Assembly: GCA_944371315.1 (NCBI GenBank)
Contig: CALVXN010000002.1
Coordinates: 1,046-65,045, forward strand
DNA: 64,000 nt
Direction of reading: 5' to 3'
From: an uncultured Bacilli bacterium
Lineage (GTDB): Bacteria; Bacillota_I; Bacilli_A; RF39; UBA660
Under the pieces are notes generated by a model. That model did not search any database, was not told where the DNA came from, and saw nothing but the letters and a program-made list of their open reading frames with translations. The position numbers and the translations under genes are program-made. Below, piece by piece: positions 5,469-36,984 of this stretch (the first letter of the stretch is position 1; the number at the start of each line of letters is the position of its first letter).

Positions 5469-5614
5469 TGTTAATAATGTCATTTTTTGTCGATTTTTAG
5501 GCCTTTTTTTGTTTATAATTTTGGGGATAATTTTTTTTGATAATTTTTCTCTTTTATTTTTATTTAAAATGGTTTAAAATGTTCTTATGGAAATATTGTA
5601 AGTGGGGTGAGGTT

Positions 5615-6967
5615 TTGAAAACGGATGAAATTTTTTCTAAATTTTTAAATGATATTCAATCTCAAGTTAGTCAAAATGCATATACAATTTGGTTTTCAAA
5701 ACTAGAACTTTTATCAATAGTTAACAATGTGGTAACTATTAAAGTTCCAATGGAAATCCACAAACAAATGTTAAGTGAAACTTATAATGATATAATTGAT
5801 GCTTCTTTTTTTTCTCTAACTGGTATTAATTATACATTTAAATATATTACAGAAGATGAGGTAGAGACATTTACTCAACCAATAATTGAAGAAGAGAAAA
5901 TTACTCACGAAATAACATGGAATACTAATTTGAATCCAAAATTTACATTTGATAGCTTTATTGTTGGAAATTCAAATAGGTTAGCTTTTGTTGCTGCTAG
6001 AGCCGTCGCTGAAGCTCCTGGAACTATCCATAATCCTTTATTTATATATGGAAGAAGTGGACTTGGAAAAACACATTTAATGCAAGCTATAGGGAATTAT
6101 ATATGCGATCATAGTGATAAAAAAGTATTATATACAACAAGTAATGAATTTATGACTGAATTTACTGGAATTGCTACAATTGATAAAGGCAGTAGCAATT
6201 TAAATTATGCGAATGAGTTTAAAAATAAGTATAGAAATGTTGATGTGTTAATAATTGATGATATACAATTTCTTGTAGGAGCTGAAAGGACACAACAGGA
6301 GTTTTTTCACACATTTAATGCATTACATCAAGCTAATAAACAAATAATTATTAGTAGTGATAAAAGTCCAGACGATTTAAAAAAAATAGAAGAGCGTCTT
6401 AGGAGTCGATTTATGTGGGGATTACCTGTTGATATTTATCCACCAGATTTTAACTTAAGATGTGAAATAATTAGAGCAAAAGTAAAAAATACTAGTATTG
6501 AAAATAAACTAACTGATGATGCAATAGATTATATCGCCAATTCTTGTGTAAATGATGTTAGACACATTGAGGGAACTATCAATAGATTACTTGCTTATTC
6601 AGCAATGATGGTTCCTGATAAAATAACTTTAGATTTTGCAAATGAAGCTTTAAAAGACTATGTTACTACAAACATATTTATCAACAATTCAATTGCTTCA
6701 ATACAAAATGCTGTTGCTGAATATTTTAAAATCTCAGTTGATGATTTAAAAAGTAAAAGAAGAACTAATAGTGTAGTCAAACCAAGGCATATTGCAATGT
6801 ATTTATGTCGCGAAGAAACTGATGAAAATTTGGCTAAAATAGGCCTAGAATTTGGTGGTAGAGATCACTCAACAGTATCAACAGCAATTGATAAAGTTAA
6901 AGAAGAATTAGAAAAAAATGATAATTTGAATAATATGTTGAAAGAAATTAAAACAAAGTTACAATAA
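5615..6967 (+). CDS. dnaA: Chromosomal replication initiator DnaA
   Basis: ORF 5537..6967. The hydrophobic N-terminal extension looks spurious. The likely start is TTG at 5615 after GGGGTGAGG, giving MKTDEIFSKFLNDIQ. Walker A GRSGLGKTHL is present, with a C-terminal DnaA-box-binding region (HSTV). ATG at 5579 is an alternative start. Confidence 0.9.
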   Translation: MKTDEIFSKFLNDIQSQVSQNAYTIWFSKLELLSIVNNVVTIKVPMEIHKQMLSETYNDIIDASFFSLTGINYTFKYITEDEVETFTQPIIEEEKITHEITWNTNLNPKFTFDSFIVGNSNRLAFVAARAVAEAPGTIHNPLFIYGRSGLGKTHLMQAIGNYICDHSDKKVLYTTSNEFMTEFTGIATIDKGSSNLNYANEFKNKYRNVDVLIIDDIQFLVGAERTQQEFFHTFNALHQANKQIIISSDKSPDDLKKIEERLRSRFMWGLPVDIYPPDFNLRCEIIRAKVKNTSIENKLTDDAIDYIANSCVNDVRHIEGTINRLLAYSAMMVPDKITLDFANEALKDYVTTNIFINNSIASIQNAVAEYFKISVDDLKSKRRTNSVVKPRHIAMYLCREETDENLAKIGLEFGGRDHSTVSTAIDKVKEELEKNDNLNNMLKEIKTKLQ

Positions 6968-7080
6968 TGTTGATAATTAATTCTAAATATTATAAGAAAA
7001 ACCGATAAATTGTGTGTTATAATTTAGTTATCAACACTAATAACATTATTAATATAAAAAAAATTATTAATATAAAAGAA
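6968..7080. promoter_or_regulatory. Second oriC part (dnaA-dnaN spacer): DnaA-box-like sites plus AT-rich stretch
   Basis: TGTTGATAA at 6968..6976 and TTATCAACA at 7028..7036, followed by an almost pure A/T run at 7037..7078. Bipartite oriC is typical for Firmicutes. Confidence 0.6.
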
Positions 7081-7094
7081 GGAGAGAGAGAAAA

Positions 7095-8210
7095 ATGAAA
7101 TGGACTATTGAAAAAAATGTTATACTAGATGCTTTAAATAATGTTACTAAAGCGTTATCACAAAGAACTACAATCCCTGTTTTAAATGGTATTGTTTTCG
7201 ATATTAATGAAAAAGGAATTGAATTGTTAGCAAGTGATTCAGAATTAACAATAAAAGTTTTTATAGATGAAAAAGATATAAAACATATTGAAGGTAAAGG
7301 AAGAATTATTATTCAAAGTAAATATTTTGTTGATATGATAAGAAAAATGCCTTCAGATGTGATTGATTTTGAAATAGAAGACAACTTAAAAATTAAAATT
7401 TCCACACCAAATAATCAATATAGATTAAATTGTTATAATCCTAATGATTATCCTAATATTAATATTGATAAAAGTGAAGATGCAATTATTATTTCCGCAG
7501 AAAAGCTAAGAGAAATTATTGCTCAAACATCTTATGCATTATCAACACAAGAAGTTAGGCCACTTTTAACTGGGATAAATATTAAAATAAATGGTGATTT
7601 ATTAGAGTGTATCGCAACTGATTCATACAGATTATCAAAGAAAAATATAAAATTATCTTCACCAGTAAATAAAATGATAAATATTGTTATTCCTGGAAGA
7701 AGTATAACTGAATTAGAAAAGATTATAAATGATGATGATGTAGAAATTCATGTATTTAGTAACAAAATATTATTTATTTACAAAAATATTTATGTTCAAA
7801 GCAATTTATTAAGTGGAACTTATCCTGAAACATCTCATTTTATTCCAAATGATTTTGCTTATATGATTAATTTAAATTTAAAAGAATTTTATGATGCTGT
7901 TGATAGAGCTGCTTTGCTTGCACAAAATAAAGATAAAAATATAATAAAAATGCATATTGAAGATAAAGATATGATTATTACATCTACTTCAAACGAATTA
8001 GGTAATGCTGAAGAAAAACTAAAAATAGATTGTAATAATAAAGAAAAAATTGAAATATCTTTTAGTTCAAAATATATGATGGATGCTTTAAAAGTAATAA
8101 AAGAAGAAAATATATTTTTATTAATTAATACTGATGATAAGCCAATATTAGTTAAACCTGTTACTGATGAATCATTAACTGAATTAATATTACCTATAAA
8201 AACTTATTAG
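7095..8210 (+). CDS. dnaN: DNA polymerase III beta sliding clamp
   Basis: 371 aa, located directly after dnaA. The N-terminus (LNNVTKALSQRTTIPVLNGI) and three-domain length are typical of DnaN. Confidence 0.9.
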   Translation: MKWTIEKNVILDALNNVTKALSQRTTIPVLNGIVFDINEKGIELLASDSELTIKVFIDEKDIKHIEGKGRIIIQSKYFVDMIRKMPSDVIDFEIEDNLKIKISTPNNQYRLNCYNPNDYPNINIDKSEDAIIISAEKLREIIAQTSYALSTQEVRPLLTGINIKINGDLLECIATDSYRLSKKNIKLSSPVNKMINIVIPGRSITELEKIINDDDVEIHVFSNKILFIYKNIYVQSNLLSGTYPETSHFIPNDFAYMINLNLKEFYDAVDRAALLAQNKDKNIIKMHIEDKDMIITSTSNELGNAEEKLKIDCNNKEKIEISFSSKYMMDALKVIKEENIFLLINTDDKPILVKPVTDESLTELILPIKTY

Positions 8211-9759: not shown

Positions 9760-10860
9760 ATGAAAATTGATTCAATTAATTTGGTTAATTTTAGAAATTA
9801 TGAATCATTAAATATTAAATTTTCTAAATTTTTGAATATTATCTATGGAAAAAATGGCATGGGTAAAACAAATTTAATTGAAGCTATATATTTACTTTCT
9901 TTAACTAAATCTTTTAGAATTAGTAATGATAAATCATTAATTAAAAAAGGGTGTTTAAAAACCAAAGTTCGAGGTGAAATCATAAAAAATGATGATTTGT
10001 CAAGTTATGAAGTTATTATTAGTAATGATGGAAAAAATGTATTGGTTGATAATAATAAAGTGGATAAAATAAGTGATTACGTTTCTAAAATTAATATTAT
10101 TTTATTTAGTCCATTTGATACTCGGTTAATTGATGAATCTCCAAGTGAAAGAAGAAAAATGATTAATATTGAGATTAGTCAACTTTATAAAGAATATCTA
10201 ATAATTTTAGCTAATTATCAAAAAATATTAAAACAAAGAAATTTTTATTTAAGATCACTTTATTTAAATGCTAATAAAGATACACAATATTTAGATATTT
10301 TAACAAGGAAATTAATAGAATATGGATTATTAATTTATAAGTATCGAAGTAATTTTTGTGAAAATATAAATAAATATATTGGTGAAATTTATAATAAAAT
10401 TTTTAAAAATGGAAATTTAAAAGTTAAATACATATCTAATTATAAGAATAAAAATAGTGAACAATTGTTAAAAAGTTATCAAAATAATTATAAAAAAGAA
10501 ATGGAAATAGGTAAAACTTTATTAGGTGTTCATCATGACGATATAGCTTTTATTTTAGATGATAATAATTTAAAAGATTGGGGTAGTGAAGGTCAAAGAA
10601 AAAATGCTATAATTTCTTTTAAATTAGCTGAAATTAATCTTGTTTACGAAGTAAAAAATAATTATCCTATACTTATTTTAGATGATTTATTTAGTGAGTT
10701 AGACAAAGAAAAAATAACTAATATATTAAAGATTTTAGATAAAAATGTTCAAACATTTATAACTACTACGGAGATAAATAAAATAGATAAAAAAATAAAA
10801 GATAATGCCAAAATATTTAAGGTAGATAATGGTAATATTAAGGAGGATACAAATGAATAA
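9760..10860 (+). CDS. recF: DNA replication and repair protein RecF
   Basis: N-terminal Walker [17 protein letters not shown]-like signature GSEGQRKN. Walker [12 protein letters not shown]. Confidence 0.9.
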
Positions 10861-12769
10861 AGAAACACATTATACTGATTCTGATATTCAAGTTTTGGAA
10901 GGTTTGGAAGCAGTAAGAAAAAGACCTGGAATGTATATAGGAAGCACTGGTGAAAGAGGTTTGCATCATTTAGTTTGGGAAATTGTAGATAATGCAGTTG
11001 ATGAAGCTTTAGCTGGTTTTTGTGATGATATTGAAGTAATTATAGATAAAGGAGATATTATTGAAATTCGCGACGATGGTCGTGGTATTCCAACAGGTAT
11101 AAATAATAAAACTGGCTTATCAACAGTAGAAACAATATTTACTGTTTTACATGCTGGAGGTAAATTTGGTGGCGAAGGTTACAAAGTAAGTGGAGGTCTT
11201 CATGGTGTTGGTGCATCTGTAGTAAATGCTTTATCAACTTGGTTAGAAGTTAGAATTTATCGTGATGGTAAAGTTTATTATCAACGTTTTGAAAATGGAG
11301 GACATCCTTGTGAAGCATTAAAAGTAATTGATGAATGTGATGTTAATAGAACTGGTAGCACTGTTAGATTTAAACCTGATGAAGAAATATTTAAGGAAAC
11401 TACTACATTTAATTATGATATTTTATACAAAAGATTGCAAGAAATCGCATTTTTAAATAAAGGATTAAGAATTAATTTATATGATCATCGTTTAGAAGAA
11501 AAACATGATTCTTTTCTTTATAACGGAGGAATTATAGAATATGTTCAAATGCTTAATAAAAATAAAACAGTTTTACATGATGATATTATATATTTAAGTG
11601 GAACTGAAGATAATATATTTTTTGAAGTAGCTTTTCAATATAATGATGGATATAATTCAAATATTTATTCTTTTACTAATAATATAAATACATATGAAGG
11701 TGGAACACATGAAGATGGTGTAAAACTTGCATTAACGAGAGTAATTAATAATTATGGTAAAAATGCTAAAATATTTAAAGATAAAGATGAATCTTTATCT
11801 GGTGATGATGTTCGTGAAGGTTTAGCTATGATAATTTCTTGTAAACATCCAGATCCTCAATTTGAAGGCCAAACTAAAACAAAATTAGGAAATAGTGAAG
11901 TTAAAAAAATAGCTAGTGATATATTTAGTAGTGGTTTTGAACGTTATTTAATGGAAAATCCTAATGTAGCTAAAATTATTATTGAAAAAGCTATGAGTGC
12001 TTCAAGAGCTAGAATTGCTGCAAAAAAAGCAAGAGAATTAGTTCGTCGTAAAGGTGATTTGGAAATTACAGCTTTTTATGGAAAATTAACTGATTGTAAG
12101 AGTAAAAATCCGGAAGATTCAGAAATTTTCTTAGTCGAAGGGGATTCAGCTGGTGGATCTGCTAAAAAAGGAAGAGATTATATGACTCAAGCTATTCTTC
12201 CTTTGAGAGGTAAAATATTAAACGTAGAAAAAGCAAGATTAGATAGAGCTTTAAGTAATGAAGAAATTAAAACTATAATTACAGCTTTTGGAACTGGTAT
12301 TGGTGATGAATTTGATTTAAATAAGTTAAGATATCATAAAATCATTATTATGACCGATGCCGATGTAGATGGTTCTCATATTAGAGTATTACTTTTGACA
12401 TTATTTTATAGATTTTTTAGACCTATTGTTGAAGCAGGACATGTATATGCTGCTCAGCCACCACTTTTTAAAATTACTCATGGTAAAACAATAAAATATG
12501 TTTTGGATGAAAAAGAAAAAAATGAATATTTAGCAAGTTTACCAACTAATGTAAAGCCAGAGATTGCTCGTAATAAAGGGTTAGGTGAAATGAATCCTGA
12601 AGAATTAAGAGATACTACTATGGCAAAAGAAACAAGAATTTTAAAACAAATTACTGTTGATGATTTACAAGCTGCTGATGCTGCATTTGAAAAATTGATG
12701 GGTGAAGCTGTTGAACCGAGAAGAGAGTTCATTGAACAAAGAGCTGGTTTAGCAACATTAGATTTATAG
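10853..12769 (+). CDS. gyrB: DNA gyrase subunit B
   Basis: ORF 10829..12769. ATG at 10853 follows AAGGAGG, giving [30 protein letters not shown]. Toprim motifs EGDSAGG and DADVDGSHI. Confidence 0.95.
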
Positions 12770-12779
12770 GGAGGTTATA

Positions 12780-15227
12780 ATGGATAAAATTATTCAGAAT
12801 AATATAGTAGATGAAATAGAAAAATCATTTATAGACTATTCAATGAGTGTAATTGTTTCTCGTGCAATTCCTGATTTAAGAGATGGTTTAAAACCCGTTC
12901 ATAGAAGAATATTATATTCTATGTTTGAATCTGGTTATTTGCCTAGTGCTCAATATAAAAAATGTGCTAGAGTTGTTGGGGATGTTATGGGAAAATATCA
13001 TCCTCATGGGGATAGTTCAATTTATGAAGCTTTAGTAAGAATGGCTCAAGATTTTAGTTATAGATATATGTTAATTGATGGCCATGGAAACTTTGGTAAT
13101 ATGGACGGCGATGGTGCTGCTGCATATCGTTATACTGAATCAAGGTTAGCTAAAATTTCTTTAGAATTATTAAGAGATATTAATAAAAATACTGTAAATT
13201 TTGTTCCAAATTTTGATGAATCTTTAGAAGAACCAGAAGTATTACCTAGTAGATTTCCTAATATTTTAGTAAATGGAACTATGGGTATAGCAGTTGGTAT
13301 GGCAACTAATATTCCTCCTCATAATTTAGGAGAAGTAATTGATGGCTGTGTTGCTTATATAGATAATCCTGACATTGATACTGATGGTTTAATGCAATAC
13401 ATTAAAGGTCCCGATTTTCCAACTGGAGCTTTAATTTTAGGAAATTCTGGAATAAAAAAAGCTTATGAAACTGGAAAAGGTTCAATTACTATTAGATGTA
13501 AAGCAGAAATAGAAGAAGAAGGTAGCAAACATAGAATTGTTATTACGGAAATACCTTATGGGTTAAATACTTTAGAGTTAAAAAAACGTATTGGAGAACT
13601 AGTTAGAGATAAAATATTGGATGGAATTTCTGATTATCATGAAGAAACAAATTTAGAAAATGGAATTAAAATTGTAATTACGTTAAAAAAAGATGCCAAT
13701 GGCAGTGTTGTTTTAAATAATTTATATAAACATACTCAATTGCAAACTAGTTATGGTATTAATTTATTAATGATTGATAATGGTGTTCCAAAAACTCTAG
13801 GTTTAAAAAGCATTATTTCTAAGTATATTGATTTTCAAAGGGAAGTAATTGTAAGAAGAACACAATTTGAACTTGATAAAGCAGAAAAAAGAGTTCATAT
13901 CTTAGAAGGTTATAAAATAGCTTTGGATAACATTGATGAAGTAATTAAAATAATTAAGGAATCTAAAGCAGATGCTGATGCAAAAGCCAAATTAATGAGC
14001 AGATTTGGATTAAGCGAAGTTCAAACTGATAATATTTTAGAACTTAAATTACGTCGTTTAACAGGCTTAGAACGTGAAAAGATTGAAGAAGAGTTAAATG
14101 CCTTACATATAGAAATAGATCGCTTACGTGGCATTTTAGCTGATAATAACAAGGTATTAAATATAATTAAAGAAGAAATGTTAGAAATTAAGCAAAAATA
14201 TAGTGATGAACGTAGAACTAAAATTGATATGACTGCTATTGATTATATTGAGGATGAATCATTAATTCCTGAAGAAAATGTATTAATAGTATTAACACAT
14301 AATGGATACATTAAAAGGACAACCTCTGATACATTTAAAGCTCAAAATAGAGGCGGCGTTGGAATAAAAGGAATGTCAACAAATGATGAAGACTTCGTTG
14401 AACATATGATTAATTTATCAACACATGATTTTGTATTATTCTTTACAAATAAAGGTAAAGTTTATAGGTTAAAAGGTTATGAAATTCCTGAATATAGTAG
14501 GCAATCTAAAGGACTACCAATAATTAATTTGTTACAAATAGAAAAAGAAGAAAAAGTAAATGCCGTTGTTGCAATTAATAAAAATGAAAATTATAAATAT
14601 TTATTATTCGCTACTAAACAAGGTATAGTAAAAAGAACTTTAATATCCGAGTTTGAAAATATTAGAAATAGTGGTAAGTTATCTATTACTTTAAGAGAAA
14701 AGGATGAACTTATCGATGTAAAAAAGACATCTGGAGAAAACTTTGTTTTATTAGGTAGCAGTAGTGGAAGAATGGTTAAATTTAATGAGCAAGATATTAG
14801 AGTTATGGGTAGAACAGCATGTGGAGTCAGGGGTATAAATCTTGAAGATTCTAGCTGCATTTGTTGTGAAATTGTTGATGAAAATTCTGTTATAATATTA
14901 GTTACAGAAAAAGGTTTTGGCAAACAAACAAATGTTCGTGAATACAGAGAAACTAAAAGAGGTAGTAAAGGTGTTAAAGCACTAAATGTAACTGAAAAAA
15001 ATGGTAATTTAGTTTCAGTTAAAGTAGTTGAAGATGATAAAGAACTTGTTATAATGACTGATTCTGGTATGACTATGAGAATGCCCATTAATCAAATATC
15101 GGTTTTAGGAAGAGTTACACAAGGTGTAAGATTAATCAATCTAAAAGATCAACAAAAAGTATCAACGATTAGTTTAGTAGATAAAGAAGATAACAATTTA
15201 AAAGAAAATATTAATGAAGAATCATAG
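12780..15227 (+). CDS. gyrA: DNA gyrase subunit A
   Basis: [12 protein letters not shown], the QRDR region [11 protein letters not shown] and the active-site AAYRYTE are all present. 815 aa. Confidence 0.95.
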
Positions 15228-16039: not shown

Positions 16040-16068
16040 TTGACAGTAAAATATTATTTTGATATTAT
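16040..16068 (+). promoter_or_regulatory. SigA-type promoter of the SRP RNA
   Basis: TTGACA (16040..16045), a 17-bp spacer, then TATTAT (16063..16068). Confidence 0.7.
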
Positions 16069-16074
16069 CAATTT

Positions 16075-16146
16075 GTGCAACAATTATGCTGTAACTTGGT
16101 CAGAATCGGAAGATAGCAGCCACATCAGTCTCTAATTGTGTGCACT
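16075..16146 (+). ncRNA. ffs: Small (4.5S-type) signal recognition particle RNA
   Basis: GGTCAGAATCGGAAGATAGCAGCC matches the conserved domain IV (GGUCAG..GGAA tetraloop..AGCAGCC). The 5' GTGCAACAATTA pairs with the 3' TAATTGTGTGCAC, followed by a T-run. It sits upstream of tadA and dnaX, as scr does in Bacillus. The ends are approximate. Confidence 0.8.
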
Positions 16147-16166
16147 TTTTATTTGGAGGAATTAAT

Positions 16167-26156: not shown

Positions 26157-27323
26157 ATGAAAAGATTATTAAAAGTCAGTCTAGATTTATTTTTATTATC
26201 TTTTATTTCTATTTTTTCTTGGTTTTGCTTAAGTTTGTTGATAGATAAAAATTTGATAAATATTTTTACTTTAATATATCCAATACAGTTTATATGGTAT
26301 ATGTTAAAGTCTATTTTTTCTATTGGAGCGAACATTAATAAAGAAAAGGATAAAAATAATGATGCGGTAATGTCAGGTATAATATTAGGAATTATTTTTG
26401 CTTTTTTAATTTCTTTGTTTCTTTTATTAAATATTGATTCCTATATTAATTTTATGAATATGAGTGTAAGTTTATATAAAAATTTTGCAATTTATTCAAT
26501 TATTCAAGGATTTATTCAATTAATATTTCTTTTTATTATTGAAAAATTATATTATGAAGAAAAAAATATTTTAGCAAATAAGTATTCAATAATATTTAAT
26601 CTTATAAATTTTACAACGTTGATAGGCATGGCAATCTTTATTAAGAATCAGATATTGATAATAATATTGACTTTAACATCAATATCCCTTTTTACAATTT
26701 ATGTTTGTGTAAAGCATTTTGAAAAATTCCATTTTAATGTAAAATTAGGTAAATGGATAAAATATGATTCTGTTGAATTATTTAATAATTTTATATTTTT
26801 TTTAATTTTCTTATTTGGATTGTCTAATGTAATAGAATATGGAAGTGCTTATACTTTGGCATTAACTTTTGTATCGTTAATTACTGATTGTCAATGGGAT
26901 ACTTTTACAGCTATAGCTGAGGTTGCTAATATTGATATTTCAAAGAGAAGATTTGAATATAAAGAACATATTAAAAATGCATATAGATTGTTATTTTGGC
27001 TTGTAATTAGTATTTTTATAATGTTTGTTACTTTATATAATTTTTATGATTTAAATTTAAGATTAGTTTTAATATATTTTAGTTTTGAAATTTTAAATTT
27101 CATTTTATATCCATTATATACTATTAAAACGTGTTATTTAAAATTAGAATATTCTTCTATGAAAATTACGTTTAATAAAGTATTTGCAAATTTGTTAAGG
27201 TTTTCTTTTTCTATGTTATCAACCCCATTTTGCACTGGATTAGGTCAAATATTTTCTTCTTTATATCAGTTTATATCTACCAGTATAATATTTAGAGTAA
27301 AAAATAGACATAATAAATGCTAG
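26157..27323 (+). CDS. Polytopic membrane protein (possibly MOP/Wzx-like flippase, yabM position)
   Basis: About 10-12 hydrophobic segments. The family was not recognised. Only its position after spoVT suggests a yabM relationship. Confidence 0.4.
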   Translation: MKRLLKVSLDLFLLSFISIFSWFCLSLLIDKNLINIFTLIYPIQFIWYMLKSIFSIGANINKEKDKNNDAVMSGIILGIIFAFLISLFLLLNIDSYINFMNMSVSLYKNFAIYSIIQGFIQLIFLFIIEKLYYEEKNILANKYSIIFNLINFTTLIGMAIFIKNQILIIILTLTSISLFTIYVCVKHFEKFHFNVKLGKWIKYDSVELFNNFIFFLIFLFGLSNVIEYGSAYTLALTFVSLITDCQWDTFTAIAEVANIDISKRRFEYKEHIKNAYRLLFWLVISIFIMFVTLYNFYDLNLRLVLIYFSFEILNFILYPLYTIKTCYLKLEYSSMKITFNKVFANLLRFSFSMLSTPFCTGLGQIFSSLYQFISTSIIFRVKNRHNKC

Positions 27324-27356: not shown

Positions 27357-27959
27357 GTGTTAAATATGAATTATTTAGAAAGAGTAGATAAAAATTTATT
27401 AATTCTTTTTGTTATAACTACAGCAACTTTATTAATATTATATGTTATTTTTTCATCTATTTTAAGTAAAGCAAATAAAACAATTTATGAAGAAAAAAAT
27501 ATATTTGCTTGGATTCCAATTTTTAATCTTTATTTATTAGGAAAAATAGCTATAAATAAAATAATTGGAGTTATATTAGTTTTAATAGAATTTTTGATTG
27601 GTTTTTTGAGTAGTATTCCATATTTTCAAAATGTAATTCCTAGTTATATTGTAGATATTTTAAGTTTAGTTTTTATATTTGTAATTATAATATTATTTTT
27701 TATAGTATTAGCAAAATATTTTAAGGTTAAAAAAAGAAAAAGAACCGTTTATGTAAATTATGTATCTCCAAATGATGATAATGGTAATAATGTTGATAAT
27801 AATCAATTTATCAACAAAAATTTTGTAAATAATCAAAATGTCTCTAATGATCAAAAAATTGTAGGAGATTCTTTTGAATTACCAAAAGTAGATAATAGTT
27901 ATTTAAATTTAAATAAAAAAAATAATGATGATATTGAAAATTTAGATGATAATAGTTAA
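27357..27959 (+). CDS. Membrane protein with an Asn/Asp-rich C-terminal tail
   Basis: Three to four TM segments followed by a low-complexity N-rich tail. The start is either GTG at 27357 or ATG at 27366. Confidence 0.5.
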   Translation: MLNMNYLERVDKNLLILFVITTATLLILYVIFSSILSKANKTIYEEKNIFAWIPIFNLYLLGKIAINKIIGVILVLIEFLIGFLSSIPYFQNVIPSYIVDILSLVFIFVIIILFFIVLAKYFKVKKRKRTVYVNYVSPNDDNGNNVDNNQFINKNFVNNQNVSNDQKIVGDSFELPKVDNSYLNLNKKNNDDIENLDDNS

Positions 27960-27999
27960 ATTATTGCTAAATTAAATTTGTTATGATAAACTAATTTTG

Positions 28000-28195
28000 A
28001 ATTAGTGATGAAAGAAAGAGTAAATATAGGATTTTTATAGAGAGTTCTTTGTTGGTGGAAGAAGAATATTTGAATATATTGAACATGGTTCTGGAGCTAA
28101 ACCGGAGATAAACCGTTATAATATTTGAGTGCATGTAATCATGAATTAAGGTGGTACCGCGGGTTTTACTCGTCCTTAGTTTGTGATTTTTATTT
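28000..28195 (+). promoter_or_regulatory. T-box leader (candidate Met specifier)
   Basis: Stem I elements are present: TGATGA...AGAGTA GA-type motif, AGAGAG at 28039..28044 and the distal-loop GGTGGAA at 28054..28060. The T-box sequence AATTAAGGTGGTACCGCG is at 28144..28161, with TAAGG/CCTTA antiterminator arms. A candidate AUG specifier lies at 28085..28087. Confidence 0.8.
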
Positions 28196-28209: not shown

Positions 28210-28695
28210 ATGAGATGTTTTGAAAAGGTTAATTTTGATGAATTTTCTAAATATTATGGAAATAACAAAGAATTATATGAAGAATATTCTTTACCAAAAA
28301 GAATGACTTCTGCTAGTGCTGGATATGATTTTTTTGCTATTGAAGATTTTGTAATTAAACCTGGTGAAATTAAAAAAATTGCTACTGGCTATAAAGCAAA
28401 ATATGAAAATGACGAAGTATTATTTATTATTGTGAGAGGTAGTGTTGGTTTTAAATATAATGTTAGAATTACTAATCAAGTTGTAGTGATTGATGCAGAT
28501 TATTATAATAATACTACTAATAATGGTCAAATGTTTATTTCTTTGCAAAATGAAGGTGATAAAGATTTTGTGGTAAAAAAAGGGGAAGGTTATGTTCAAG
28601 GGATATTTATGAAATATTTGATTTGTGATAATGATTGTGCTGATGGAATAAGAAATGATGGGTTTGGTAGCACAAATAAAAGAAAGGATGATTAA
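28210..28695 (+). CDS. dUTPase-family protein (YncF-like)
   Basis: ORF 28183..28695. ATG at 28210 follows GGAGG. ASAGYDF, RGSVGFK and the C-terminal GFGSTN motifs are typical of trimeric dUTPases. Confidence 0.7.
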   Translation: MRCFEKVNFDEFSKYYGNNKELYEEYSLPKRMTSASAGYDFFAIEDFVIKPGEIKKIATGYKAKYENDEVLFIIVRGSVGFKYNVRITNQVVVIDADYYNNTTNNGQMFISLQNEGDKDFVVKKGEGYVQGIFMKYLICDNDCADGIRNDGFGSTNKRKDD

Positions 28696-28697
28696 TA

Positions 28698-30224
28698 ATG
28701 AATAAATATTATATATCTACTGCTATAGCTTATACTTCTGGTAAGCCTCATATAGGAAATACTTATGAAATTGTTTTGGCTGATGCGATTGCAAGATTTA
28801 AAAGAACGCTTGGTTATGATGTTTACTTTCAAACTGGAACCGATGAACATGGAGAAAAAATTGAAATAAAAGCTAAGGAATCTGGAATAACTCCCAAAGA
28901 ATTTGTAGATGAAAAGGCAGCCGAAATAAAGCGTATTTGGGATATAATGAATACAAGTTATGACAAATTTGTCAGAACTACTGATGAAAATCACGTAAAA
29001 GTTGTTCAAAATATTTTTAAAAAAATGTATGAAAAAGGAGATATTTATAAAGGTGAATACAAAGGGCTTTATTGCACTCCTTGTGAATCTTTTTGGACTG
29101 AATCTCAATTAATTGATGGTAAATGTCCTGATTGTGGAAGACCAGTTGAAGAAAAACGTGAAGAAGCTTACTTTTTTAAATTGTCAAAATACCAAGAAAG
29201 GTTAGAAAGCTATATTGAAAGTCATCCTGACTTTATTAAACCGGAATCTAGAAAAAATGAAATGATTAATAATTTTATTAAACCAGGATTACAAGATTTA
29301 TGTGTTTCTAGATCTTCATTTACATGGGGAATTCCAGTTGACTTTGATAATAAGCATATTGTATATGTTTGGCTTGATGCATTAACCAATTATATTACTA
29401 ACATAGGATATGATGTTGATTCTGAAAGTGATCAATTTAAAAATTTGTGGCCAGCAGATTTACATTTAATAGGAAAAGATATTATTCGCTTTCATACTAT
29501 ATATTGGCCTTGCTTTTTAATGAGTTTAGATTTACCAATGCCTAAACAAGTTTTTGGACATCCTTGGCTTATTATGGCTGATGGTAAAATGAGTAAATCA
29601 AAAGGCAATGTTGTTTATGCAGATGATTTGGTGGAAGAGTTTGGAGTAGATGCTGTTAGATATTACTTTTTACATGAAATTCCATATTCATCTGATGGCG
29701 TATTTTCTAGAGATTTATTAATAGAAAAAATAAATTCTGATTTAGTAAATATTCTAGGTAATTTAGTTAATAGAACAGTTAGTATGGCTTTTAAATATTT
29801 TGATGGTAAAGTAGTAAATACAAATGTTGTTGAAAAAATAGATGAAGAGTTGAAAGATAATTTAAAAAATTTGGATAAAAAAATTATAGAAAAAATGGAT
29901 AACCTTTTTGTTGGGGAAGCAATTGAAGAAATATTTAATGTATTAAGAAAATGTAATAAATATATTGATGATACTACTCCATGGGCTTTAGCAAAAGATG
30001 AAAGTAAAAAAGATCGTCTAGAAACTGTTTTGTATAATTTATTAGAATCTATTAGAATTTGTGCAATATATTTAAGTCCTTTTTTACCTGATACTTCTGA
30101 AAAAATATTTAAACAGTTAAATACTAATAATGGTTTATATAAATTAAAAGAGTTTGGTAACTTAGAAAGTCCAATATTATTAAATGAACCTCAACATTTA
30201 TTTTCAAGGATAGAGGTAAAATAA
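28698..30224 (+). CDS. metG: Methionyl-tRNA synthetase (short form)
   Basis: HIGN (HIGH) motif, zinc knuckle CTPCES...CPDCG and KMSKS are present. At 508 aa it lacks the C-terminal Trbp111-like domain. Confidence 0.95.
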   Translation: MNKYYISTAIAYTSGKPHIGNTYEIVLADAIARFKRTLGYDVYFQTGTDEHGEKIEIKAKESGITPKEFVDEKAAEIKRIWDIMNTSYDKFVRTTDENHVKVVQNIFKKMYEKGDIYKGEYKGLYCTPCESFWTESQLIDGKCPDCGRPVEEKREEAYFFKLSKYQERLESYIESHPDFIKPESRKNEMINNFIKPGLQDLCVSRSSFTWGIPVDFDNKHIVYVWLDALTNYITNIGYDVDSESDQFKNLWPADLHLIGKDIIRFHTIYWPCFLMSLDLPMPKQVFGHPWLIMADGKMSKSKGNVVYADDLVEEFGVDAVRYYFLHEIPYSSDGVFSRDLLIEKINSDLVNILGNLVNRTVSMAFKYFDGKVVNTNVVEKIDEELKDNLKNLDKKIIEKMDNLFVGEAIEEIFNVLRKCNKYIDDTTPWALAKDESKKDRLETVLYNLLESIRICAIYLSPFLPDTSEKIFKQLNTNNGLYKLKEFGNLESPILLNEPQHLFSRIEVK

Positions 30225-30985: not shown

Positions 30986-31003
30986 ATTTTTCAATAGTTT
31001 TTA
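30973..31003 (+). terminator. Intrinsic terminator after tatD
   Basis: AACTATTGA / TCAATAGTT stem spanning the stop codon, followed by a T-run. Confidence 0.6.
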
Positions 31004-31059
31004 TTTATTTTATAATATTTTTAATTTATAATATAATTTACATTTTGGAGGGAAAAAAT

Positions 31060-31980
31060 ATGTATGATCAAAAAATAAAAGATGGAGTAATAAAAAGAGT
31101 AATGCTAGGGGAATTAATTAAAGATGTTAGTGAAGATACAGGAGTATCTATTGGAACTATTAGAAGATGGGTAAAAGAATACAAAGAAAAAATGGACAGT
31201 AATTCTAAAAGTATAACTGATAGTGAAAAAGGTTTTTTGCAATTGGTTTTAGATGAAGATAATTTGCTAGTTAATGTTGATAGGTTAGCAAGTGAAGGAC
31301 TATTAGATGATGTTTTAAAATTATTTGATAATGAAGAATTTAAATATAATGCTAATATGCAAATAATGAGAATTAACATTTTAATTAACTTAGATAGATT
31401 GGAAGAAGCTTTATGTTTATGTGAAAGTTTAGAATTTTTAAAGGATAAAGAAATTAGGTTGCTACAAAGAAGAATACTCAATATGATGCTTAATAAAAAA
31501 AGAATGCAACTTAAAATGGATTTAATAAGAGTTCTTAAATACAAATTAGATAGCCAACAAGATATTGAATCAAGTGAAATGCCGATAGAATCTGATAATA
31601 AAGTTAAAAAAGCAAATTCAACAAGTATATTATTTGAAATATATAATAATAAAATTTTAACTCAATGTGATTTAGCTTCAATAAATATTAATGATTTAGA
31701 ACGGGTAATACTAACTGTAGCTTTATACGATAAACAAAACTTACCTTTAAATATATTGTTCAAATATTTAAAAGAGAAGTTAGTTGAATACAGTGAAGAA
31801 GAGGAAATATTTAAATTAATTCAAAGTTTGTTTTTAAAAATGAAATCAAAAAGGAGAATATTTGATTTGGAGCATTATAAGAATTTGCTAGTAAGTGTGA
31901 GAAAATATAGGCATATAATTAGTGAAGCAAAAGATAGTTCTTTAGCAAGAAAAAAACCAAACGGTGATAATAATGTATAG
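31060..31980 (+). CDS. HTH (IS3 OrfA-like) protein with a few 32-residue helical repeats and a conserved C-terminal domain; paralogue of the next gene
   Basis: ORF 31045..31980. ATG at 31060 follows GGAGGG. The N-terminus MYDQKIKDGVIKRVMLGE..TGVSIGTIRRWVKEYKE and the C-terminus VALYDKQNLPLN...MKSKRRIFDLEHYKNLL both align with the product of 31973..33625. Confidence 0.7.
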   Translation: MYDQKIKDGVIKRVMLGELIKDVSEDTGVSIGTIRRWVKEYKEKMDSNSKSITDSEKGFLQLVLDEDNLLVNVDRLASEGLLDDVLKLFDNEEFKYNANMQIMRINILINLDRLEEALCLCESLEFLKDKEIRLLQRRILNMMLNKKRMQLKMDLIRVLKYKLDSQQDIESSEMPIESDNKVKKANSTSILFEIYNNKILTQCDLASININDLERVILTVALYDKQNLPLNILFKYLKEKLVEYSEEEEIFKLIQSLFLKMKSKRRIFDLEHYKNLLVSVRKYRHIISEAKDSSLARKKPNGDNNV

Positions 31981-33625
31981 TCAAGAAATTAAACAAATGG
32001 TTTTAAAAAGGATAAAAAATGGTGAAAAAGTTAAAAGTATAAATGCTAATACTGGTATTTCTATTGCAACTATTTACAGATGGGTTAAGGAAGAAAAATT
32101 AGAAAGTAATAATATAGCGACTCCTTTTGATGAGTTATCTGATGTTGAATTATTACAGAAATATTGTAATATTAATGATTTAGATAATGCCTTAAATATT
32201 TGTTTGGATCCTAAAAATAAAAACAATCCAATAATTCAATCGCAACATGTAAAAATTTTAATAATGAAAAGCGGTTTATACGATGCTTTAGCAATATGTG
32301 AGCAGCCGTTGTTTTTAACTGATAATGTAATTCAGTCACAACGCATAAGTATTTTAGTAATGCAAAATAGAATATGTGATGCCTTAGCAATATGTGAAAA
32401 TCCTATTTTTGAGAAAAATGATAGCATACAAACTCAACATATAAAAATTTTAATAAAAAAAGGTAAAATTGATGAAGCATTGAAAATGTGTGAACGTTTA
32501 GAGTTTGCAGATTATCCTTTAATCCAATCTATACGAATAAAAATTTTAATGCTTAAAGATCGTTTGATGGAAGCTTTAGCAATAAGTGAGCGACCATTGT
32601 TTTTAACTGATAGTGTAATTCAGTCACAACGCATAAGTATTTTAGTAATGAAAAATAGAATATGCGATGCCTTAGCAATATGTGAAAATCCTATTTTTGA
32701 GAAAAATGATAGCATACAAACTCAACATATAAAAATTTTAATAAAAAAAGGTAAAATTGATGAAGCATTGAAAATGTGTGAACGTTTAGAGTTTGCAGAT
32801 TATCCTTTAATCCAATCTATACGAATAAAAATTTTAATGCTTAAAGATCGTTTGATGGAAGCTTTAGCAATAAGTGAGCGACCATTGTTTTTAACTGATG
32901 ATGTAATCCAATCCCAACGTATATGTATTTTAGATAAACAAAGTAGAATAGTAAAAGCTTTAGAACTATGTGAAAATCCTATTTTTGAAAAAAAATATAA
33001 TGTTCAATCTCAACATATAAAAATCTTAATAGAACTAGGTAGGATTGAAGATGCTTTAAAAATATGTGAACGTTCAGAGTTTGTAAATAATCCTCGCATT
33101 CAATCCCAACGAATAGAAATTTTAATTAATAAAGGTAATTATAAAATGGCTTTAATGATATGCGAAAATCCTCTTTTAAGTGAAGACATTGTTATTAAAA
33201 GGCAAAAAGGAAAAATAATAGCTTTAATGCAATCTCCTTTTTATATATCATCCGCAGAAAATTTAACTTTAAAACCTATGGATATAAAAATTTCTTTATC
33301 GTTGCTTGAAGCAATAAAAAAAGATGAAATTTTATCTCCATCTGAAATTGATAATTGTGAAATTCATGATATAGTAAAAATTATTTTAATAGTTGCTTTG
33401 TATGATAAACAAAACATGTCTTTGAATGTTGTATTAAGATTCTTAAAACAAAAGATGGAAAAATATAAGTCAATAAGTCAATATTTAAGAATTATTCAAC
33501 AATTACTTTTAAGAATGAAGTCTAAAAGAATAATATTTGATTCAGAGTATTATAAAACTTTATTAAATAGTCTTTTAAGGGGTAAAATAGATGAGAAATC
33601 ATTACGCCGTTGTAAGCCAAATTAG
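31973..33625 (+). CDS. HTH (IS3 OrfA-like) protein with about ten tandem 32-residue helical repeats
   Basis: ORF 31964..33625. The ATG at 31973 overlaps the upstream stop (ATGTATAG). The repeat unit is IQSQRIxILxxxxRxxxALxICExPxFxxxxx. The C-terminal domain is shared with the product of 31060..31980. Confidence 0.75.
   Translation: MYSQEIKQMVLKRIKNGEKVKSINANTGISIATIYRWVKEEKLESNNIATPFDELSDVELLQKYCNINDLDNALNICLDPKNKNNPIIQSQHVKILIMKSGLYDALAICEQPLFLTDNVIQSQRISILVMQNRICDALAICENPIFEKNDSIQTQHIKILIKKGKIDEALKMCERLEFADYPLIQSIRIKILMLKDRLMEALAISERPLFLTDSVIQSQRISILVMKNRICDALAICENPIFEKNDSIQTQHIKILIKKGKIDEALKMCERLEFADYPLIQSIRIKILMLKDRLMEALAISERPLFLTDDVIQSQRICILDKQSRIVKALELCENPIFEKKYNVQSQHIKILIELGRIEDALKICERSEFVNNPRIQSQRIEILINKGNYKMALMICENPLLSEDIVIKRQKGKIIALMQSPFYISSAENLTLKPMDIKISLSLLEAIKKDEILSPSEIDNCEIHDIVKIILIVALYDKQNMSLNVVLRFLKQKMEKYKSISQYLRIIQQLLLRMKSKRIIFDSEYYKTLLNSLLRGKIDEKSLRRCKPN
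32309..33172 (+). repeat. Three tandem 288-bp units (each equals three 32-codon repeats); units 1 and 2 are nearly identical
   Basis: I count 3 mismatches between 32309..32596 and 32597..32884. Unit 3 (32885..33172) is clearly diverged. Confidence 0.9.
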
Positions 33626-33653: not shown

Positions 33654-33682
33654 TTGACAAATATATACGCTAATGCTATAAT
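33654..33682 (+). promoter_or_regulatory. Consensus SigA-type promoter
   Basis: TTGACA (33654..33659), a 17-bp spacer, then TATAAT (33677..33682). Confidence 0.75.
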
Positions 33683-34258: not shown

Positions 34259-35041
34259 ATGAAAGCAAAAAAGAGTTTAGGTCAAAATTTTTTAATTGAT
34301 GAAACTATAATTAATAATATTGTAGAACAGATTAATGCAAACGAGGATGATTTAATAATTGAAATTGGCCCTGGACGAGGAGCACTAACTAAAATGCTAA
34401 TTGGTAAAAAATCTCATTATATAGGTTATGAGATTGATAATGAGCTAATTCCTATTTTAAAAAAGTTTGTAGGCAATAAAATTGTTATAAAAAACCAAGA
34501 TTTTTTAGCTTCTGATTTAACTAATGATATTAAAAATATAACTTATAATAAATTATTTATTGTTGGCAACTTGCCATATTATATTACTACACCAATAATT
34601 GAACATATAATAAATTCTAAAATTAAATTTGAAAAATTAGTAATTATGGTTCAAAAGGAAGTGGCGAATAGATTTATGGCATCGTGTGGTGCAAAAGATT
34701 ATGGATACATGACCCTTTATTTAAAATACTATTTTGATATTTTTAAAGTTTGTGATGTTTCTAAATTTAGTTTTAATCCTGTTCCTAAGGTTGAAAGTTC
34801 TGTTCTTTCTTTTTCTATAAGAAAAAACAGACCTATTGTTGATGAAAATAAGTATTTTGAATTTTTAAAAGCTTGTTTTAAGCAAAAAAGAAAAACTTTA
34901 AAAAATAACATAGGCAATATAAAATTTGAAAAGATAAAAAAAATACTATTAAAAAATAATATAATGGAAAATGTTAGAGCAGAAGAAATAAATGAAGAAT
35001 TGTTTATTTTGTTATTTAATGAATTGAATAAAAATAATTAA
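34259..35041 (+). CDS. rsmA: 16S rRNA (adenine1518/1519-N6) dimethyltransferase
   Basis: KKSLGQNFLID, EIGPGRGALT and GNLPYYITTPI motifs. Confidence 0.95.
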   Translation: MKAKKSLGQNFLIDETIINNIVEQINANEDDLIIEIGPGRGALTKMLIGKKSHYIGYEIDNELIPILKKFVGNKIVIKNQDFLASDLTNDIKNITYNKLFIVGNLPYYITTPIIEHIINSKIKFEKLVIMVQKEVANRFMASCGAKDYGYMTLYLKYYFDIFKVCDVSKFSFNPVPKVESSVLSFSIRKNRPIVDENKYFEFLKACFKQKRKTLKNNIGNIKFEKIKKILLKNNIMENVRAEEINEELFILLFNELNKNN

Positions 35042-36516: not shown

Positions 36517-36984
36517 ATGTTAATAAGCAAAATAAAATACGTATATGAAAATGGTAAATTAATTGGTGTTAAAATTCTTACTTTTAATGGTGAAGGTTTT
36601 TCAATTAAAGAAGTATATGTTGGAATACAACTTGATATAAATGATGTTTTATCTAATCCTGAAGTTGCTGAAAAAATGGGTATTGGTGATATTAACACTT
36701 TTTGCCGTAGATATAATGCTTGTTTAGCTCAAGGTATAGTTTATTTTCCACAATCTGGAACTTATTCATTTATGGATGGTAGAGATGAAATATTGCCTTG
36801 GAATGAAGAAATTAATGTTGAAGAACAATTAGCTAATGTTATTTTACCATATAAAGAAACACAAGTTAACGATGAAACATTTATGCGTGAAGTAGATAAT
36901 GCTTTTGATCCAGAAGATCCATTAATTGAAATGCTAGGAATTGAAAATTCATCATTAACATTAAGTAGAGTTTCTGAACGATAA
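36517..36984 (+). CDS. Hypothetical acidic 155-aa protein (orphan)
   Basis: Strong RBS AAAGGAGAG plus its own promoter and terminator. No recognisable motif. Confidence 0.6.
   Translation: MLISKIKYVYENGKLIGVKILTFNGEGFSIKEVYVGIQLDINDVLSNPEVAEKMGIGDINTFCRRYNACLAQGIVYFPQSGTYSFMDGRDEILPWNEEINVEEQLANVILPYKETQVNDETFMREVDNAFDPEDPLIEMLGIENSSLTLSRVSER

Follow-up and report, generated by a model that had tools for sequence, protein, structure and literature searches.

Solenoid proteins of the tetratricopeptide repeat (TPR) type have, in canonical form, a 34-residue period and the signature W4-L7-G8-Y11-A20-F24-A27-P32, and those of the pentatricopeptide repeat (PPR) type have a 35-residue period, with positions 2, 5, 13 and 35 of the motif having roles in RNA contact or in the recognition code. 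Bacterial proteins that combine a helix-turn-helix (HTH) domain with TPRs are mostly transcription regulators, and the RRNPP and AimR regulators of Bacillota likewise place a helical-repeat sensor behind an N-terminal HTH. Prokaryotes do not typically have PPR proteins (PMC4029402). In a 64,000-nucleotide stretch of DNA from an uncultured Bacilli bacterium (assembly GCA_944371315.1, contig CALVXN010000002.1, positions 1,046 to 65,045 of the forward strand; hereafter the window, whose numbering is used unless another locus is named), two overlapping genes, here called p1 and p2, encode proteins in which an HTH head, helical units of 32 residues and a conserved C-terminal domain are joined in that order. 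The repeat is a variant inside a known class; neither the C-terminal domain nor the whole family has been described before. Below, other proteins of the family and their loci are designated by the letters P and L, respectively.

Two overlapping paralogues with shared ends

ORF (open reading frame) calling and translation delineated p1 (31060-31980, + strand; 306 aa, MYDQKIKDGVIKRV...TGVSIGTIRRWVKE) and p2 (31973-33625, + strand; 550 aa, MYSQEIKQMVLKRI...TGISIATIYRWVKE). The two proteins align by BLASTP at both ends with 33-35% identity, over the HTH (E 2e-16) and over the C-terminal domain (E 4e-28), which bears out the shared C-terminal domain proposed in a preliminary description of this DNA. 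That description had also reported about ten repeats of exactly 32 residues in the second protein, of which we find exactly ten at p2 residues 88-407, and its count of about two repeats in the first is fair, p1 holding one clear unit and two degenerate hairpins. The 8-nt gene overlap that it had given, ATGTATAG, is correct as well; it is kept in a genome of the same species as the window (metagenome-assembled genome, MAG, CASFPB01; L001) and in L085-L088. The two paralogues are predicted to be translationally coupled. The p1 orthologues P0007, P0010-13 and P0026 are also 306 aa long. The parts of the pair are the following.

31060-31980, + strand: p1, the short paralogue, with HTH, about three hairpins and C-terminal domain (ORF, domain search, BLASTP)
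31060-31194, + strand: p1 HTH, residues 1-45, HTH_Tnp_1 / HTH_23 type (Pfam, 25.8 bits)
31261-31548, + strand: p1 hairpins, residues ~68-163, comprising the clear unit at 100-131 and two degenerate ones (unit scan, BLASTP)
31621-31911, + strand: p1 C-terminal family domain, residues 188-284 (domain alignment and profile)
31973-31980, + strand: the 8-nt overlap, with the p2 start within the p1 stop
31973-33625, + strand: p2, the long paralogue, 550 aa (ORF, translation, model)
31973-32107, + strand: p2 HTH, residues 1-45, three helices (Pfam, model)
32141-32233, + strand: p2 N-terminal capping hairpin, a degenerate unit, residues 57-87 (model)
32234-33193, + strand: p2 array of ten exact 32-residue units, residues 88-407 (translation, Tandem Repeats Finder, model)
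32330-32905, + strand: tandem duplication of a 288-nt block, units 2-4 (32330-32617) and units 5-7 (32618-32905) (DNA identity)
33194-33286, + strand: p2 C-terminal capping helix and low-confidence linker, residues 408-438 (model)
33287-33583, + strand: p2 C-terminal family domain, residues 439-537, six helices (profile, model)

The AlphaFold2 model of p2, which has a mean predicted local distance difference test score (pLDDT) of 87.1, consists of a three-helix HTH (residues 4-44), a flexible linker, the capping hairpin, the ten units, a capping helix at residues 406-420 and the six-helix C-terminal domain. Each modeled unit pairs a 13-residue helix A with an 8-residue helix B and has one 3-10 turn.

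The preliminary description had assigned the HTH to the IS3 OrfA type, and the profile searches agree. Against a Pfam HTH_Tnp_1 cut-off of 24.1 bits, p1 scores 25.8 and relatives score 27-29, with p2 just below the cut-off at 21.1; the best models are HTH_Tnp_1, HTH_23 and HTH_28, HTH_3 being weak and confined to one relative. In addition, weak NCBIfam matches to IS3 and IS630 are confined to the HTH, and in PHROGs the HTH of P0016 matches that of the terminase small subunit (E 1e-9). The first ~45 residues of p1 and p2 are an HTH of the IS3-OrfA/terminase-small-subunit type, although, unlike in those systems, the family HTH heads a solenoid protein and has neither a transposase nor a terminase context. 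The p1 match above the HTH_Tnp_1 cut-off and the IS3 and IS630 matches would fit a remnant or domesticated insertion sequence of the IS3 OrfA-like kind, an origin that we find hardly credible: the HTH is joined to ~250-500 residues of nontransposase protein conserved across 246 clusters, the position is conserved across strains and in a related species, no DDE transposase ORF is present at the p1-p2 locus, in line with the preliminary description, and the candidate terminal inverted repeats flanking the pair are only AT-rich chance pairs. The same evidence refutes p1-p2 as a mobile element, leaving only a shared HTH ancestry.

A 32-residue unit between TPR and PPR

Alignment of 185 distinct units from the family gave the consensus IQSQKITILIKLGRLEEALEICNRPEFKNNxx, in which I1, Q2, S3, Q4, I6, I8, L9, A18, L19, I21, C22 and F27 are best kept, Q2, S3 and Q4 at 68-78%. 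The 32-residue period noted for p2 is a trait of the family, with 134 of 193 unit spacings having this length and 25 of 193, in a sub-group, being of 30 residues. Within arrays, diversity peaks at unit positions 32, 30 and 11, and S3 is nearly invariant (Ser in 68% of the 185 units, within-array diversity 0.25). At the DNA level, Tandem Repeats Finder detects a 288-nt, three-unit period at 32285-33126 (2.9 copies, score 1290). Units 2-4 and 5-7 of p2 are 98-100% identical as DNA, and units 1, 8 and 9 are 75-78% identical to their corresponding unit types; the near identity of the two blocks indicates that the array grew by three-unit blocks, the latest of them very recently.

A Foldseek search of the PDB with the p2 model returned 159 matches at E <= 0.001, and the 50 listed are all TPR or PPR solenoids. 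Among these, the best E value (4e-7) belongs to the TPR domain of OGT (1w3b), and the best TM-scores to designed PPRs in RNA- or single-stranded DNA-bound structures (5orq, 0.60, root mean square deviation 6.1 A; 5i9g, 0.56, 5.8 A; 21-24% identity). At the sequence level, whole p2 has no match in the PDB, and a profile of three units run against all PDB sequences places designer PPRs at the top (E 7e-17 to 6e-11, including 6een at 6.9e-17 and 5i9d at 1.5e-13), followed by the synthetic PPR 4ozs (3.7e-6), Listeria GmaR (7.6e-4) and SRP72 (0.03), with no consensus TPR at E < 1. The Pfam matches of family proteins are weak and fall on SRP_TPR_like, TPR_1, TPR_19, TPR_2 and PPR; among 25 single three-unit pieces, SRP_TPR_like matched 11, TPR_1 10, TPR_19 9, TPR_2 6 and PPR 4. 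For TPR_19, p2 reaches 28.4 bits as a whole protein against a cut-off of 25, and no single stretch passes. P0004 scores 48.5 bits on Pfam PPR, and the PPR model TIGR00756 gives E 0.002, below its cut-off.

On this evidence from sequence and model, the unit belongs to the TPR clan (Pfam CL0020), between TPR and PPR, and is a member of neither, since it departs from them in period, in signature and at the PPR code positions. With TPR solenoids (OGT, SRP72 and subunits of the APC/C) it shares the Foldseek match to OGT, the weak Pfam matches and the conserved Ala of helix B, the only residue retained from the TPR signature; unlike them, it has a period of 32 rather than 34, lacks W4, G8, Y11 and P32, passes the TPR threshold in no single stretch, and leaves the consensus TPRs of the PDB unmatched. 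Q4 lies at what we take to be the site of the Asn ladder in the OGT TPRs, which serves as a lead only. With PPRs (6een, 5i9d, 5i9g, 5orq and 4ozs) it shares the two-helix hairpin solenoid, the core G-[KR]-[LI]-[ED]-E-A-L-x-[IL]-[CF] and chemically compatible residues at the RNA-contact positions. The HMMER alignment presents the unit as a PPR motif minus three residues at the end of helix B (hence 32 rather than 35), with S3 on PPR position 5, unit position 30 (N/D/Y) on position 35, unit position 32 (V/I/P/Y) on position 2 and K11 on K13. However, the family has IQSQ in place of xTYN/T and an invariant position-5 equivalent, it joins the array to an HTH on one side and to a novel C-terminal domain on the other, and it occurs in bacteria of the gut Bacillota only. 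The view that the repeat matches neither TPR nor PPR, as first proposed, therefore holds in part: the hairpins are of the TPR clan and match designer PPRs, whereas the 32-residue period and the IQSQ signature occur in no known TPR or PPR subfamily.

These matches raise the possibility that the array acts in the manner of a PPR and would bind single-stranded RNA or DNA, one nucleotide per unit, with the HTH as an anchor on double-stranded DNA. Several observations point this way: the three-unit profile favors designer PPRs over consensus TPRs, the top TM-scores among the matches listed are to designed PPRs bound to RNA or single-stranded DNA, the residues at PPR positions 2, 5, 13 and 35 are compatible, within-array diversity is greatest at positions 32, 30 and 11, P0004 matches Pfam PPR, and p2 is basic overall, with an isoelectric point of 9.0. 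Nevertheless, we regard this mode of action as doubtful. Position 3 is nearly invariant, hence no four-letter code; position 30, although variable (0.62), doubles as the helix A N-cap and lies in the loop of positions 29-32, a stretch that varies in any solenoid. Moreover, designer PPRs are idealized consensus sequences that attract homogenized repeats, the Pfam control on the 25 pieces favors TPR families (9-11) over PPR (4), the period is 32 rather than 35 with a shortened helix B, and PPR proteins are atypical of prokaryotes. The charge of the array itself, near-neutral at +2, does not discriminate, because the units of the RNA-binding designer PPRs matched by the profile hold approximately equal numbers of acidic and basic residues. 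Were the array to bind in this way, the near-constant Ser at the position-5 equivalent would direct it to a tract of low complexity, such as one rich in purines, instead of to a programmable sequence; the likeness to programmable nucleic acid binders suggested earlier is accordingly not borne out, with no multiletter code visible. It seems unlikely, too, that the family is a native bacterial relative of the PPRs, in which a 32-residue nucleic acid-binding repeat coupled to a sequence-specific HTH would draw its specificity from positions 30, 32 and 11 and bridge a double-stranded DNA site and single-stranded RNA or DNA; were it so, the family would be a novel kind of modular binder and a possible prokaryotic root for PPR-type recognition.

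A family defined by its C-terminal domain

The C-terminal domain is a helical module of ~97 residues with the motif ILLxAxYEK...SKKxxIFDxxFYxxLL, against whose profile p1 and p2 score 95-96 bits; it is basic. It has no significant match in Pfam and none among PDB sequences (best E 0.036). Modeled alone (pLDDT 86.6, pTM 0.79), it matches no PDB fold (best E 1.4) and no viral fold, and hhalign finds it unrelated to the repeat unit (probability 0.1%). The domain is the family-defining module, without a recognizable relative in the libraries searched.

An exhaustive HMMER search of 1.84 billion representatives with the profile of this domain yielded 246 clusters (defined at 50% identity) at E <= 0.001, 141 of them at E <= 1e-10, and, of 5.8 billion proteins, only 20 were picked up by a word-indexed search with the full-length p2 sequence. 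None of these 20, one of which is labeled 'hypothetical protein [Bacilli bacterium]', and none of eight further representatives carries a functional name. A DNA pattern of two in-register IQSQ units occurs in ~23 gut MAGs (GTDB species representatives) from rabbit, Hadza human, mouse and other hosts, some of which carry several paralogues or loci. The family is undescribed and restricted to uncultured low-GC gut Bacillota. As for the source organism of the window, the GyrB sequences nearest to its own are those of uncultured gut 'Bacilli' MAGs (72-80% identity), followed by Erysipelotrichaceae (63-65%), and GC content is ~0.22-0.28 across 26-39 kb.

Variation of the domain architecture was observed among the 167 family sequences inspected. 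An additional C-terminal extension longer than 80 residues, absent from p1 and p2, is present in 113; in P0003, P0004, P0014, P0016 and P0019, for example, it consists of a Lys/Glu-rich linker and a second conserved helical module with the motif IYxxMxxxxxxQxKAxxxWDRxxxxIDK, for which Pfam holds no match. Thirteen sequences begin with the C-terminal domain and some are clearly permuted, circular permutation being seen in P0008, P0141, P0144 and P0145, where the domain comes first and the repeats after it.

Variation between strains

Within the species, no gene of the locus diverges more than p2. Between the window and L085, dut, metG, the yabE-like gene, ksgA, yabG, veg and spoVG are 96.5-100% identical, p1 96% and tatD 91%, and p2 is 78.5% identical over its alignable part and differs in length. 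The divergence is unevenly distributed along the proteins. The HTH of p1 is 98-100% identical in six strain variants and that of p2 100% in the alleles P0001 and P0002, with the p1 solenoid at 88-94% and the p2 C-terminal half at 45-70%. There are p2 alleles with 10 units (the window), 7 units (P0001, 454 aa) and 6 units (P0002, 418 aa), the three-unit duplication being the part missing from P0001. In P0002, residues 1-183 are 99-100% identical and everything after them 45-70%, a break that identifies it as a mosaic allele. Separately from p1 and p2, ksgA (34259-35041) is only 84% identical to L001 (10975-11757), with neighboring genes at 97-100%, which points to local mosaic recombination in the region.

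This pattern would also be expected of a polymorphic conflict or self/nonself sensor, in which the solenoid recognizes a phage or competitor protein and the HTH triggers a response. The contrast between p2 (78.5%, different length) and most flanking genes (96-100%), the mosaic P0002 allele, the variable repeat number, the several paralogues in some genomes and a match of p2 to Pfam EAD11 (36.9 bits against a cut-off of 26, spanning 2.5 repeat units) are all compatible with such a role, which we nonetheless judge improbable. Neither an effector domain nor an NTPase partner is present, the neighbors are housekeeping genes, and no family member was found by tblastn in phage and plasmid collections, nor any match to the IQSQ pattern in viral contigs. 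In PADLOC, p1 and p2 have only HTH-level or subthreshold matches and four relatives have none, and the PHROGs matches are at HTH level only. EAD11 was rejected as a family feature: it is peculiar to p2, falls to 20.3 bits, below the cut-off, on a three-unit piece, and has no match at E <= 0.01 in any of ten further members of full length. An EAD11-coupled conflict system, with the domain on a core NTPase and an effector nearby, was likewise rejected, neither being found among the neighbors; the main text of two Aravind-group papers does not mention EAD11.

The HTH followed by TPR-like repeats, together with a diversifying sensor region reminiscent of pherotype variation, further recalls the RRNPP-type quorum-sensing receptors for secreted, reimported peptides, a likeness raised in the preliminary description. 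It does not hold up, and we consider membership in this group very improbable. The HTH is of the HTH_Tnp_1/HTH_23 type and not XRE; the 74-nt upstream and ~70-nt downstream intergenic regions of p1-p2 contain no ORF of at least 20 aa, in agreement with the earlier statement that no peptide ORF is seen, and no small neighbor recurs across 30 other loci. Furthermore, the 32-residue units are regular and expandable, unlike the degenerate TPRs of RRNPP proteins, and most relatives have, in addition to the conserved C-terminal domain, the C-terminal extension.

A chromosome-bound regulator or adaptor as a candidate function

The reading that we favor, with a probability of roughly 40%, is that the proteins are chromosome-bound regulators or adaptors whose solenoid binds a diversifying partner; the usual role of bacterial HTH-TPR proteins and the conserved polar residues S3 and Q4, which fall on the polar face of helix A, argue for it. 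In this scheme, the proteins would be cytoplasmic, the N-terminal HTH would bind a fixed DNA site, and the concave face of helix A, with its polar ladder of S3 and Q4 (along with K/R5, K/T7 and K11), would bind an extended partner, most probably a protein or peptide. The C-terminal domain would provide a constant output, such as oligomerization, possibly of p1 with p2. Array length would shift through unequal recombination, either of whole units or of blocks of three, and between strains the solenoid and the C-terminal half diversify with the HTH remaining fixed.

Several observations weigh against this reading. The operator, the target and the partner of p1 and p2 are postulated, and the concave placement of S3 and Q4 comes from helical-wheel reasoning and alignment to TPR/PPR numbering. 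The closest PDB sequence matches are RNA-binding designer PPRs, not peptide-binding TPRs. An N-terminal HTH is detectable in 56 of the 167 family sequences inspected, only about one-third, so DNA anchoring is not universal, and ~7 members have a cationic amphipathic N-terminal helix in its place. Strains that differ by only 4% in p1 differ by 37% in the C-terminal domain of p2, which argues against tight coevolution of p1 and p2. Finally, no gene neighbor conserved across the family was found.

The members with the amphipathic helix are P0015, P0018, P0021, P0022, P0031, P0075 and P0142; the helix, for instance MLKIIKKIKSLFKK, is followed by an acidic linker and may be an alternative membrane anchor that replaces the DNA anchor.

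Genomic context

In the window, the gene order is T-box leader, dut-metG-tatD-[p1-p2]-DPBB/yabE-like-ksgA-yabG-veg-spoVG-yabP, and the order from metG to spoVG is found in the window and in two other assemblies. The secreted 175-aa DPBB/yabE-like protein has no Pfam match at E <= 0.001. In a related species (L106), a single 593-aa family gene directly follows tatD. Thus, the locus is old, and p1 and p2 represent a later tandem duplication in which p1 shed most of its units; the position between tatD and the yabE-like gene was correctly described, but the pair is not a recent insertion there. The signals around the pair are listed below.

30986-31059, + strand: AT-rich tatD-p1 intergenic region, with a 21-nt tandem repeat, promoter matches and a ribosome-binding site
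30988-31016 and 31009-31037, + strand: two sigma-70-like matches upstream of p1 (consensus matches only)
31048-31053, + strand: ribosome-binding site GGAGGG, 7 nt ahead of the p1 ATG (sequence)
33654-33682, + strand: perfect TTGACA-17-TATAAT match with extended -10 TG, upstream of the DPBB/yabE-like gene (consensus match)

The last of these probably marks the 3' boundary of the p1-p2 unit. The AT-rich 21-nt direct repeat (30986-31037, + strand; ~2.1 copies, 82-83% matches) falls within the putative promoter region of p1 and could be an operator or merely low-complexity DNA. In L106 there is almost no spacer between tatD and the family gene, and the repeat region is thus not conserved. Between that family gene and the yabE-like gene, L106 has three unrelated ORFs of 67, 146 and 235 aa (1043-2451, - strand), one of them with a signal-like N-terminus; it seems that genes have been gained repeatedly in the gap between tatD and yabE.

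A separate, independent tandem pair of family genes is present in L116 (1902-4985, + strand), where proteins of 467 and 554 aa are encoded between a gene for a sporulation-type sigma factor and yqeG/yqeH-like genes. The near identity of the two C-terminal domains points to a recent duplication or to gene conversion, and the second protein has at least 11 almost identical units.

Across the family, the genes sit in chromosomal housekeeping contexts, with flanks such as pnp and mscS (P0019), relBE and aspS (P0004) and cell-wall polysaccharide genes (P0021). When the flanking ORFs of 33 loci were clustered, the only recurrent neighbors were those of the metG/tatD synteny of close relatives.

Other features of the window were recorded as well. 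The T-box leader (Rfam RF00230, 106 bits; 27999-28180, + strand) lies directly 5' of the dUTPase ORF (28210-28695), which abuts metG (28698-30224), so that a tRNA-sensing riboswitch seems to control a dut-metG(-tatD) operon. Upstream of the T-box, ORFs 26157-27323 and 27357-27959 (+ strand) encode hydrophobic or Asn-rich products with no Pfam match; a 155-aa ORF between spoVG and yabP (36517-36984, + strand), likewise without a Pfam match, is conserved in L085 and L105. A small bacterial signal recognition particle RNA (RF00169, 56 bits) lies at 16066-16161 (+ strand). Homologues confirmed gyrB within 10829-15227 (+ strand), and the next ORF, of 815 aa, is probably gyrA; together with dnaA- and dnaN-sized ORFs at 5537-8210, these suggest that the window lies next to the replication origin.

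Implications

The finding is solid as anatomy, that is, in the architecture of the proteins, the class of their repeat, the polymorphism between strains and the distribution of the family. It adds a 32-residue unit to the TPR/PPR repertoire, along with a C-terminal domain without a recognizable relative. With clean three-unit length steps between strains, a fixed, putatively DNA-binding head and diversification of the rest, the p1-p2 locus offers a natural system for how the length and surface of a solenoid tune a DNA-anchored function. If the PPR-like reading of the array were true, the family would bear on the origin of PPRs and would supply a shorter scaffold on which to engineer nucleic acid binders; if it were false, this would still be a lineage-specific regulator family worth annotating.

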